From NCBI GenBank assembly GCA_031400935.1, contig JANNQV010000028.1, positions 1 through 64,000 on the forward strand: a stretch of 64,000 bases of DNA. The letters run 5' to 3'. The position numbers were made by a program. Below are positions 3,001 to 6,000 of the stretch, one piece after another; position 1 is the first letter of the stretch; every line of letters begins with the position of its first letter. This DNA is from Armatimonadota bacterium. Lineage in GTDB: Bacteria > Armatimonadota > Fimbriimonadia > Fimbriimonadales > Fimbriimonadaceae.

Positions 3001-6000
3001 ACTCAAATCCTCAAGACAACGACAGCCGAAAAGCCAACTGCGAACGAATCGCCGCTCCATTCTTCAGACGACCCGTTTTTCAAGCAGCTATCTGCATTTG
3101 TTGAATCAATCAAGAATGGGACACCTGTTCCCGTTTCTGCTGAAGAAGGGTTCAAGTCTTTGGCGGTCGCCCTTGCCGCGGTTGAAAGTGCGAAGACCCA
3201 AAAATCGGTTGTTCCATCAGCAGGATAACTTGCCAAAAATTTACAGCAAATCAGAACTAATCCCCTGAATTTCTCGTACAATACTATTAGTAGTGCGAAA
3301 ACTTACCTTTTTGGGCACAATCACTCGCATTGCGTTGGCAATCTTCATCGGATTTGCCGCGCTCCCGTTTGCGCCAGCCACTTCATGCAGTGGCTCGAAT
3401 TGCAAAAGCGATTGCCCGATGCACGAAGCAAAGGTTGAAACTAAATCTTGTTGCGCAGAAAAATCAAAACCAGTCGTCTGCATTTGCTGTTCAGAACAAA
3501 TGCTAATCGCGGTTGCCACGATCCCTGATTCGCAATCCTTCGAGATCCGACTTATTGCGACGATCTCAACGAAACAAATCGGGGCCAAGAAGCCGATTCA
3601 AAGTCAATCGAACAAACTTGGACCCACTCACAATCACGACCCGCCATGCGCGATCCAAGTCGAAATTGATTCTCCTCGCGGCCCGCCAGCCATGGCATAA
3701 CTCGTAGCATCTAGACGATGCTACAGCCAAAAGGCTCAAAAAGCCTCATGACAATTTCAGGAGAAAACAATGATTTCAACAATTATCGCAATTTCAATGC
3801 TCTCATCAGGAGCACTCTTCGCAGACGTCCAATGCGCCGTCCAACCCGATCCCATCAACCCAAAAATGGGGATGTTCGACTATGCCGGCGTCCGCTATGG
3901 CACATGCTGTGCTGGCTGCGTTCCGGCATTTACAAAAGAGCCGGCTAAATTCATCAAAGCCGCTGCCGAGGCAAACCGAACTATCGGCGTCGCACTATTC
4001 GACCCGACAACTGGAGTTCGCGTTGACGCAAAGAAGGCTACAGGCGGATTTTCAGACTATAAAGGAACTCGCTACTTCTTTGGAGCGGCGGCTTCAAAAA
4101 CGACATTCGATGCAAATCCAAGCCAATTCGGAACCATACCAGTTAAGGAAGCTCTGTACTGCCCAGTGATGGGCCACGGAGTTGCAGATTACGCTTCAGC
4201 CGGAGCGGTAGCCGACTTTGATGGCGTCCGCTATTACTTGTGCTGCACAGATTGCCTTGGCAACTTCAAAGCAAGCCCCGGCCAATATGCGGCGAAAGCG
4301 TCTTCGAAAGCCGTTGCGCCAAAGCTGGTTAAAGCCCCTAAGGAAAAGAGCGGATGAAAGCGCTCATAACAATTTCGTTAGTCCTTGCGTTTTCTGGTAC
4401 TGCCTTGGCACAAAGCCAAGGCGGATGCCCGCTCTGAACAGCAGGTGGATTTGGGGCCGGTTCGGCCTCAGGTGAGCGACCTAAATGGTTGCTCAATACA
4501 GTAATTGCGCCTGACACCGTGACCAAAGGGGAAACCTTCCTTTGGCATACAGTGGATGACAAACTTCAGGTAGGAGTTGCTTATCTTTGGAAGCAAGGCG
4601 CGTTTCGAGGACTTGCTAACTATGTGCTAATTCCTCAACAGGGCAACAGTCCAAATTTGCGAATTGGACTCGGTCTTCAAGGAATTGCAACAGGAAATCC
4701 AGGCTATTTCGCTACAAGCGAGAAAGTTTGGACATCGGGAAAGAATGACTTTTCCGCCTACGTTGGAATTGGTTTTCGCGCAAACGAAAATCATAGCCAC
4801 ATGTTAGGCGGAGCAAAAGTTACGCCAAATCATGGTCCTTGGACTTTTGGCATCCAACTCGACGGCCATAGCAAACATCCGTTTGTTTCCCGTCGAATGG
4901 CATCAAATATAGTTTTGGGTGCCTATTGGATCGAAACCAAGAGCTTAGGGATAATGGTAAGCCTAAGCAAGTAGCTCACTTAGCCCCTCCCTTTTTCGAC
5001 GAAGGAGAAAGAGGGAGGGGTTGGGGAGGGAGTTCAGTCCAACTTCGTCCAGCGAGCGAACTTAAAATCTCAAGTTCCGCTCACTCCACCCCCTAACCCC
5101 CCTCCTCTTTGCTCGTTCCTCGCAGAATGGAGGGGGGAATCAGATAACTACCAACAATTCCGATCGCTAGTCCCGAATTTGGTAATCACATAACCATTGC
5201 GCTCTTCTTCTAGGCGATACCAATGGTAAACGCTCGTTCGTCGTCCCCATGGATCTGTGTATTCATGTCGGGCAACAACTTCGGCTTCATCTCGGTACGT
5301 TTTTACGGACTCAATTTCGTAGCTTCGCGTTTTGGAATTATAAATTCCGTCAAGCATTAGGTCGTAAAAATCGTCGGATTCGAGAGAATAGTCGTAGTTT
5401 CCGTTGCTGTAAATATGAATTCTATCCTTACCGGAAATCAATCGTCCAAGTGCTCTGCGATCTTGATTTTCAAATGCCTTGACAATGTCGTCAATCGCAT
5501 AATCTACATCCGAACGATTGTTATTGTAGCTTCGGCCATTCCAAGAATCATAACGGTTGTACCGATAGTCGTTTCCTCGCCAAATCACAATTGGAATGCT
5601 TATGATTCTGATGCAATTATAGTTTAGGTACCCGGGTAGCGACGAATAGTAGTACCAAGGCGAAACCACGCAACGAGTAGACCAAGGGCTAAATACGTAC
5701 CGGTTGCTCCAGAAATAGTCGTCGCACCAATCGTTGTTGTAATGGTAGTAGCCGTTTCGCCAGCTATTGTCATAGATGTTGCCGCGTTTTCGCGGGTTGT
5801 CTTCGCGCAAGACTAAGTTAGCAAGACTTTGCGAACTTGGGGCACCACGAATGATTACAGGCTCAATTCTTCCGCGGCCATTGTTCGAATTGTTTACGGA
5901 GCCATCGTAGCCACCTCGTCCGTTACGAGGAATTCGTCCCAACTGTTCTGAGCCTTGCTTGACCCCGGTAGGACCGTTTCCGCCTCGGACTGGAGGATTT

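Follow-up and report, generated by a model that had tools for sequence, protein, structure and literature searches.

The window analysed here (a stretch of 64,000 nucleotides from an Armatimonadota bacterium of the family Fimbriimonadaceae, contig JANNQV010000028.1, positions 1 to 64,000) carries on its forward strand a putative regulatory leader ORF (3293..3700), the gene of an exported YHS/TRASH-repeat protein (3770..4357) and a selenoprotein gene of 206 codons (4354..4974), the latter recognized by reading the frame through a TGA and by comparison with ortholog loci. This single in-frame TGA at 4435-4437 represents U28 within the motif Cys25-Pro-Leu-Sec28 (4426..4437). The N-terminus is hydrophobic, and a signal peptide of residues 1-19 (4354..4410) ending in an A-L-A cleavage site and lacking a lipobox was assigned by eye; this arrangement recurs in the orthologs. 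A lipoprotein anchor at Cys25 was considered and rejected because of the missing lipobox and because this position is occupied by Sec in relatives. Re-reading of the frame and of the signal peptide together with the CPLU motif of the orthologs agrees with the first-pass annotation, which had described a 206-residue exported protein with Sec at residue 28 in a Cys-x-x-Sec motif. The core observation, i.e. that 4354-4974 encodes an exported selenoprotein with a predicted 12-stranded barrel, is confirmed at the level of sequence and prediction. Its non-aromatic C-terminus, formerly listed as a doubt, was seen again, but all five members of the gene's subclade have it, so that it is not a sign of damage.

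The evidence for selenocysteine comes from orthologs, from the RNA and from the Sec machinery. Among the best 30 family loci 27 have CPLU, one has UPLU and two are fragments without the site; one further locus beyond these 30 raises the total to 28 CPLU forms with the TGA conserved in frame. Against them stand eight genomes with CPLC or CPIC, and two relatives show nothing of the motif (G-P-L-S). The host genome possesses selA, selB, selD (with a TGA of its own) and tRNA-Sec, each above cut-off. Sec machinery occurs in all 33 genomes with a TGA form (selA in 32, selB and tRNA-Sec in the remaining one), whereas selA is found in none of the eight Cys-form genomes (background 79 of 121). Folding, covariation and the published model constraints locate a bacterial SECIS hairpin at 4449..4473. 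These constraints comprise a loop of 3-9 nt with G, a distance of 16-37 nt from the UGA, a stem of 4-16 bp and at most -7.5 kcal/mol (PMC13188914), and the hairpin itself has an 11-bp stem, -15.9 kcal/mol over 40 nt, an apical loop beginning with G and a distance of 22 nt. Two-sided changes occur in 26 cells, a result matched in 0 of 500 shuffles. On average 6.3 of 7 pairs are kept in the 28 Sec forms versus 1.8 of 7 in five Cys forms, where the hairpin is lost. The strong hairpin noted previously is real, but its figure of -29.9 kcal/mol takes in a second hairpin.

Computation thus shows UGA28 to be recoded as Sec via the SECIS hairpin. That the TGA could be a true stop, and the product the annotated fragment of 151 residues or a pseudogene, is suggested by the cut forms that stand in databases, but the codon is the same in 28 orthologs, Cys is found opposite to it in genomes without selA and the SECIS covaries, and the pseudogene reading was rejected. 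Moreover, the signal peptide lies solely upstream of the TGA and strand 1 begins ahead of the annotated start, and we regard a true stop as scarcely credible.

As claimed before, profile searches of the 206-residue protein return no family in either Pfam or NCBIfam (the latter at E 1). The same NCBIfam search with 15 relatives at E 0.5 gave nothing save two unrelated weak matches, and Pfam yielded only weak barrel matches (PagL, OMP_b-brl) for 48 members. Rfam produced only hairpin-type chance matches, and promoter and terminator scans remained at chance level. AlphaFold2 (pLDDT 90.3, pTM 0.84) again predicts 12 strands, in line with the earlier model, and together with structure comparison it places the barrel at residues 45-205 (4486..4968). 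The CxxU residues are modelled with borderline confidence (pLDDT of 55 over model residues 1-10 and of 71 over residues 11-20), and in a model of a sister-clade barrel the tail is unplaced. Conserved His147, His149, His172 and His175 (4792..4878, together with Glu145 and Asp170) probably form a ring at the extracellular mouth, as judged from strand topology. Each of them is present in 21-22 of 28 sequences and absent from 6-7, and they are mostly absent in the sister clade.

The top fold match is the small porin KdgM (4pr7; related to NanC, 2wjr) with Z 15.5, rmsd 2.2, 148 aligned residues and 7% identity. It begins at model residue 27, which leaves the Sec-bearing tail outside. A KdgM model searched at E 0.1 recognized 0 of 48 barrel members, PDB sequences gave no match, and no sugar-acid pathway is conserved near the barrel gene. 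In KdgM/NanC porins acidic sugars are guided by a track of basic residues lining the pore; the conserved charges here are mixed (E60, E123, E145, D170 and R85, K124, R142, K155). Hence, the proposed KdgM/NanC type stands as far as the fold is concerned, but not with respect to a sequence link, to the tail, which it leaves uncovered, or to the context, which is one of metals and not of sugar acids. Other 12-stranded barrels, namely the COG4313 channel (4rl8), FapF (5o65) and autotransporter barrels (3kvn, 1uyo, 3aeh), align from model residue 3-13 on with Z 12.0-14.2, and in EstA, NalP, Hbp and the COG4313 channel (Z 12.0-14.2) the alignment runs from residues 11-13 onward. Their N-terminal segments, lumen plugs, align with the tail, a part that the KdgM match does not reach. 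These proteins are larger, with 6-10% identity, and the selenoprotein has no passenger domain. A Cys/Sec pair is not known from any of them. A third relative in fold is PcoB (7pge; Z 9.7, rmsd 4.1, 153 aligned residues), although neither the CopB model nor PDB sequences match the barrel protein. PcoB/CopB proteins (PMC9210255, PMC12509749) share with it the 12 strands, both ends in the periplasm (as predicted here), an N-terminal tail that binds metal in PcoB/CopB and putatively does so here, and a copper-handling context. Their N-terminal domain is long, disordered and rich in His and Met, in contrast to the tail of 25 residues without His or Met found here; furthermore, the YHS and TlpA partners described below differ from the PcoB/CopB context.

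The family is wider than supposed. Its alleged Sec-less paralog (C27:215002-215511) turned out to carry a signal peptide and two in-frame TGAs in the motif U-T-S-U, and it belongs to a UxxU sister clade that is homologous to the CxxU barrel over the full length with an identical SECIS register. Confinement to Fimbriimonadaceae does not hold either, as CxxU forms are present in another family of the same phylum (f32), while members of the sister clade are spread over many phyla; a barrel-only pattern detected 594 stretches over GTDB. In a tree reconstructed by a quick method both clades are separated with a support of 100, and seven loci contain both. Besides its two Sec residues the sister clade differs in its wider range, in other loop motifs and in having mostly ArsR or no leader (ArsR in 10 of 80 loci). 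In 56 of 76 sister-clade loci a TlpA-like gene follows immediately downstream; this TlpA bears a YHS domain, and YHS-barrel fusions exist as well. The search found no longer, fused forms of the CxxU clade, which is weak evidence, and no YHS-TlpA fusion in the host genome.

The operon partner is an exported protein of 195 residues with two Cys-rich repeats (Pfam YHS, E 4e-15). Its stop overlaps the ATG of the barrel gene (ATGA at 4354-4357), i.e. both genes are translationally coupled, and both are located downstream of the leader. Orthologs of the YHS gene adjoin the barrel in seven loci including that of the host. This partner and the leader constitute a new context beyond the earlier description of the barrel. 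Further neighbours of the CxxU clade include HMA proteins (two loci), a CopA-type HMA P-type ATPase (one), MerR regulators (four), exported Cys-rich, metallothionein-like peptides (six, plus L131) and small thioredoxin-like genes (L009, L021 and L043). In all four of these MerR proteins a Cys is retained at the position that marks sensors of divalent metals and not CueR. No multicopper oxidase was found among the neighbours scanned, and at many CxxU-clade loci the nearest ORFs, with flanks of often only 1.5 kb, contain no metal gene. The YHS domain has been described as a copper sensor (PMC4626032).

The leader encodes 135 residues with nine Cys, a hydrophobic N-terminus (by eye) and a C-terminal RGPP arrest-type motif, whose codons (3677..3688) are a putative ribosome stall site. 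It agrees with the published filters for CutF-like proteins (PMC9973294), namely a length below 150 residues, PP among the final 15, a signal for export and, no more than 1000 nt away, a gene on the same strand (here after a gap of 69 nt). In the two codons that precede RGPP an anti-Shine-Dalgarno sequence (3670..3676) is predicted to pair with the Shine-Dalgarno sequence of the YHS gene (3759..3765), so that the latter would be hidden in a stem (z -3.92, equal stability in 0 of 200 shuffles, pairing probability 0.95). Of 129 loci, 18 have a strict R[AG]PP-ended ORF close to the barrel gene, while about two are expected from the opposite strand. In 16 of 17 leaders the Shine-Dalgarno sequence is paired with the leader end at P>0.5, and in 12 of the 17 at most two of 40 shuffles are as good. 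We therefore consider 3293-3700 a putative CutF/CruR-like metal-sensing leader. With CutF of Rhodobacter and CruR of Bordetella, copper-sensing leaders of the DUF2946 kind, it shares size, export signal, Cys motifs, C-terminal Pro-Pro and the short gap, and with cutF-cutO the predicted stem. It differs from both in its target, a selenoprotein barrel operon, and from CruR in the distance between the last Cys cluster and the arrest motif (60-70 residues in the leaders, 63-66 in this one, versus 45 between CxxC and RAPP). Pfam DUF2946 matches neither this leader nor any among 13 leaders. The host genome has another Cys-rich leader of this kind, heading an operon of OEP, YtkA, CusB-type and AcrB/CusA-type genes. 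Leaders of the CutF-like type can act in either direction, and not all of them are specific for copper (PMC9973294), which counts against the metal reading given next.

From the leader, the YHS coupling and the neighbouring MerR, ArsR, HMA, P-type ATPase and Cys-rich peptide genes we suggest that the barrel is a putative PcoB/CopB-like outer-membrane channel for thiophilic metals, made under metal excess, a reading to which we give an even chance. Its metal would most likely be copper at the host locus, and possibly Zn, Cd, Hg or As at others. The Cys-x-x-Sec pair would take the place of the His/Met tail of PcoB/CopB. If the tail enters the pore from the periplasm and folds into it, as its alignment with lumen plugs suggests, the pair would be situated in the lumen below the four-His ring at the outer mouth. 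During export the Cys cluster of the leader may bind metal and cause the ribosome to stall on RGPP, thereby masking the anti-Shine-Dalgarno sequence and permitting translation of the YHS protein and the barrel. The YHS protein would then gather periplasmic metal and hand it over to or from the Cys/Sec site, held reduced by a TlpA-type thioredoxin, and the net effect would be trapping of metal at the outer membrane, or its release through it, under excess. A passive pore is unable to pump metal against a gradient, however, and the many loci without a metal gene, the gaps in the His ring, the Cys of the MerR proteins, the low confidence of the tail, the missing YHS-TlpA fusion in this genome and, weakly, the lack of fused CxxU forms also speak against the metal channel, as does the absence of the leader in the same-genus genome G017 and at four other YHS-linked loci. 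A more specific version, for which the chances are clearly poorer, is a selenium-operated metal valve. A selenenylsulfide in the plug (a diselenide in the sister clade) would be opened by a periplasmic YHS/thioredoxin relay, and the selenolate would capture Cu(II), Hg(II), Ag(I) or As(III) and perhaps also reduce metal inside the outer membrane, with synthesis set jointly by the nascent-chain metal sensor and the selenium supply.

The direction of transport could be the opposite, i.e. copper uptake under shortage by an OprC-like channel under CruR-like control that feeds YHS, YtkA and TlpA proteins which load cuproenzymes. Stalling means "on" under both models, stalling of CruR on RAPP switches on a TonB-dependent transporter at copper scarcity (PMC9426467), E. 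coli PcoB is said to admit copper (PMC9210255), and at L054 leader, YtkA-like protein and barrel follow each other. Yet the stem that hides the Shine-Dalgarno sequence corresponds to the CutF and not to the Rho-dependent CruR design, while MerR, ArsR, metallothionein-like peptides and a P-type ATPase at related loci, as well as the efflux operon behind the other leader of the host, fit excess. We consider uptake unlikely.

Instead of transporting metal, a Cys/Sec pair cycled by thioredoxin may gate the pore or reduce an outside oxidant (a disulfide, a peroxide or an oxyanion of selenium or arsenic). Most CxxU and UxxU motifs in the catalogue of 2026 are of redox type (PMC13188914), no partner accompanies the sister clade as constantly as the TlpA-type thioredoxin, and thioredoxin-like genes also stand beside three CxxU barrels. 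Such a redox device without a metal substrate is nevertheless rather unlikely, as that TlpA bears a YHS domain, the regulators found (CutF-like leader, MerR, ArsR) are of metal-sensor types and the barrel protein has no thioredoxin fold. Even less can be said for a nutrient porin of the KdgM/NanC type whose plug is merely stapled, in a structural sense, by the Cys-Sec bond. The fold match, the two G-P-L-S relatives and an upstream sugar dehydrogenase-type gene at the host locus and a few others would be compatible with it, but a sequence link to KdgM/NanC is lacking, leader and partners are of metal type, and Sec, which persists wherever a genome has the machinery and occurs twice in sister-clade proteins, would be costly for a staple. 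This makes it improbable.

The barrel family is not contained in the 119-family selenoprotein catalogue of 2026, a comparison that leaves aside the BSepDB family table, and a literature search, whose scope did not extend to the protein list of the CutF paper, revealed no paper on it. The TonB-dependent receptor FCYXU (NF049945), also with CxxU, and GSU2204 (NF041027) are likewise exported barrel-type selenoproteins (PMC13188914), but the barrel protein, with its 206 residues and 12 strands, has no NCBIfam match. It thus adds a selenoprotein family to the outer membrane, a compartment with few listed, and wherever the TGA occurs gene callers remove both the signal peptide and the active motif. 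Together with the sister clade it offers a natural series of CxxC, CxxU and UxxU on one small scaffold, in which selenium can be tested over sulfur. The putative leader would carry translational metal sensing of the CutF/CruR type into another phylum and tie it to a selenoprotein, and it renders the function of the barrel testable with regard to metal and direction. Should the selenium-operated valve prove true, hundreds of species from little-studied phyla would possess a porin whose lumen houses a redox-active site.

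Read through its sole in-frame TGA (4435-4437), the frame at 4354-4974 (+) translates into 206 residues with Sec28 in the motif Cys25-Pro-Leu-Sec28, six residues past the apparent signal peptide (called by eye). The first-pass annotation had taken this TGA for selenocysteine in a Cys-x-x-Sec motif behind the signal peptide, and co-occurrence with the Sec machinery, cysteine forms and a covarying SECIS element bear this out: the codon encodes selenocysteine. In this genome selA, selB, selD (with a TGA of its own) and tRNA-Sec all lie above the cut-offs. The barrel protein is matched in 44 of 121 family genomes, of which 33 have the TGA, eight cover the site without a stop and three are weak matches to a paralog's barrel only. 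All eight stop-free forms show CPLC or CPIC. A selA match is present in 79 of the 121 genomes; by form the count is 32 of 33 with TGA and none of the eight with Cys. Related genomes are not independent in these counts, but the genome-derived Cys forms branch at two positions of the tree. G120 (88% complete), the only TGA genome lacking a selA match, possesses selB and tRNA-Sec, and in four Cys genomes tested neither of these two was above cut-off. Within genus g5 the only selA member has CPLU and its five sisters CPLC.

The hairpin at 4449-4473 (+) fits the bacterial SECIS model as outlined in PMC13188914. Across 28 genes its helix of seven pairs shows 89.8% pairing and 26 two-sided changes; none of 500 shuffles attains this, nor does any slid register. 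On average 6.3 of 7 pairs are formed in Sec forms versus 1.8 of 7 in the five Cys forms scored. At two loci (L102, L105) both motif residues are replaced (G-P-L-S) and the barrel is retained.

As had been noted before, the 206-aa protein belongs to no Pfam or NCBIfam family (0 in both). The predicted 12-strand barrel is recovered by AlphaFold2 over residues 45-205 (48 sequences, pLDDT 90.3, pTM 0.84). Its top fold match is KdgM (Z 15.5, rmsd 2.2, 148 aligned), followed at Z 12-14 by EstA, a Vibrio porin, NanC, FapF, LpxR, the COG4313 channel and other autotransporters; PcoB reaches Z 9.7. The former assignment to the KdgM/NanC small-porin type is supported by the fold but not by the sequence, by which the barrel and leader proteins of the window are not members of KdgM, PcoB or DUF2946; no sequence link of the barrel protein to solved structures was found. 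Alignments to KdgM and NanC start at the first strand, those to EstA, NalP, Hbp and the COG4313 channel at model residues 11-13 (Leu27-Thr29). Since the latter four have part of their N-terminus lodged within the pore, the model most likely places the tail and hence Sec28 in the lumen, as judged from these alignments, in a region of model confidence 55-71. The model of a sister-clade protein leaves the tail unplaced. His147, His149, His172 and His175, each conserved in 21-22 of 28 sequences, would by strand topology lie at the outer mouth together with Glu145 and Asp170, and the many invariant glycines would agree with a filled lumen.

Two earlier statements had to be abandoned, namely that the family is confined to Fimbriimonadaceae and that the paralog on contig C27 lacks Sec. 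This clade has CxxU forms in family f32 as well, and reading through two in-frame TGAs at C27:214984-215604 (minus strand; L055, L056) gives a second member with start codon, signal peptide and U-T-S-U. With this paralog as query 31 of 201 phylum genomes match, nearly all strong matches having two TGAs. A barrel-only pattern detects 594 related stretches in GTDB; among the best 80 of them 79 show UxxU and the remaining one is a broken frame, their sources being Armatimonadota, Acidobacteriota, Eisenbacteria, Gemmatimonadota, Planctomycetota, Latescibacterota, Methylomirabilota and proteobacterial bins. The hairpin of these stretches has the same register as in the CxxU proteins and likewise covaries; because it sits 30 nt from one UGA and 21 nt from the other, a single SECIS could serve both. 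In a quick tree, 92 barrel domains fall into two clades (support 100), the clade of the present gene with 30 CxxU, eight CxxC, five UxxU and two motif-free members, the sister clade with 41 UxxU, five CxxC and one CxxU. Genome G082 has three UxxU members of the former clade (L042, L043, L044), two of them long-branched and without the standard hairpin register. Both clades meet in one locus seven times; a five-gene run at L021 comprises a His/Met-rich exported protein, CxxU barrel, YHS protein, small thioredoxin and UxxU-clade barrel.

The barrel ATG overlaps the stop codon of an upstream gene (3770-4357) for an exported protein of 195 aa that contains YHS/TRASH repeats (Pfam), whose orthologs adjoin the barrel in seven loci including the present one. 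Copper sensing by a YHS domain was reported in one study (PMC4626032). The preceding ORF (3293-3700) encodes 135 residues with hydrophobic N-terminus, nine cysteines and R-G-P-P three residues before the end; it passes the filters that define CutF-like leaders in PMC9973294 and has no match to DUF2946 in Pfam. In the predicted fold 3670-3676 (+), the codons directly before RGPP, pair with the YHS gene's Shine-Dalgarno (SD) sequence (z -3.92). The footprint of a stalled ribosome would reach these codons, and stalling on RGPP would thus cover 3670-3676 and free the SD. What is proposed here on a predicted fold has been described for cutF-cutO, where a stalled leader ribosome frees the SD (bioRxiv 10.1101/2025.02.05.636593). 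A G/C-rich inverted repeat at 4979-5122 separates the barrel gene from a convergent gene; Rfam gives chance matches only.

ORFs ending in R[AG]PP occur near the barrel at 18 of 129 loci (12/49 in this clade's set, 6/80 in the sister set) versus about two expected from the opposite strand, the loci including close kin and the flank being only 1.5 kb at many of them. All 18 are Cys-rich with a cluster about 60-70 residues ahead of the motif, roughly the distance from the ribosome active site to the periplasm. In CruR this spacing is 45 (PMC9426467). The SD of the next gene pairs with the leader end at probability >0.5 in 16 of 17 scored, and in 12 of 17 at most two of 40 shuffles reach this. Absence of a leader from the same-genus genome G017 and from four other YHS-linked loci weakens its generality; in G017 a 157-nt gap with inverted repeat precedes the YHS gene (L007:757-914). 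The other Cys-rich leader of this kind in the present genome, RAPP-ended, stands at the head of an outer-membrane efflux gene and those of a YtkA-like protein, a CusB-type adaptor containing a cupredoxin domain and an RND pump (C18, about 57800-66534, minus strand; L203:3800-12535), after which a multiheme cytochrome gene is found.

Around barrels of this clade there are MerR regulators at four loci (three with MerR-type promoter), small thioredoxin-like genes at three, HMA proteins and His/Met-rich exported proteins at two each and an HMA P-type ATPase at one; at many loci no such gene was found among the nearest ORFs scanned (148/172). Short exported, metallothionein-like Cys-rich peptides (63-130 aa) lie between leader and barrel at six loci (L014, L018, L020, L022, L047, L051) plus L131. 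Sister-clade barrels have a TlpA-like gene, fused to a YHS domain in the examples inspected, as their immediate downstream neighbour in 56 of the 76 loci whose DNA extends far enough; ArsR regulators stand at 10 of 80 loci, metallothionein-like peptides at several, and YHS-barrel fusions occur. Tiny Cys-rich ORFs (25-85 aa, C-x-C-C end) just 5' of UxxU barrels (L119, L120, L121, L123, L127, L137, L142) often follow an ArsR gene. The YHS-TlpA fusion is absent from this genome, and its C27 member stands without this usual downstream gene. TlpA-like genes are present, two with their own UxxC (W-U-G-P-C by TGA read-through; C62:57549-57857, L198, and C15:14347-14763, L199), which are possible reductants for the barrels.

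Most simply, the protein is read as a PcoB-like channel for thiophilic metals. PcoB, according to PMC9210255 and PMC12509749, combines a barrel of 12 strands with a periplasmic tail that binds metal. In the proposed scheme the Cys/Sec pair would act as that tail, the YHS protein as partner of the channel and TlpA as reductant of the pair. MerR and ArsR regulators turn genes on under metal excess, and as regulator type, leader design and the C18 efflux operon agree on excess, we favour detoxification over uptake. The MerR neighbours keep a Cys that marks divalent-metal sensors, so the transported metal may differ between loci. Recoding signals, fold class, gene order and recurrence are established by the computation; where the tail lies, the stalling, the substrate, the direction of transport and what the partners do are inferred. 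An aquaporin-family (MIP) gene before leader and barrel in genus g5 (L033, L036, L037) and ArsR with a downstream ArsM-like methyltransferase gene at L128 hint at arsenic at some loci.

None of the 119 families in Table 1 of PMC13188914 corresponds to this one; two other outer-membrane selenoprotein types (NF049945, NF041027) are included there. It is not described in the passages covered of PMC9312934, PMC12013277, PMC13326102 and PMC13745706, nor did searches of the literature outside subscription papers and some supplements reveal a description. We regard it as a new selenoprotein family whose task, carried out by new chemistry, is probably similar to that of PcoB.
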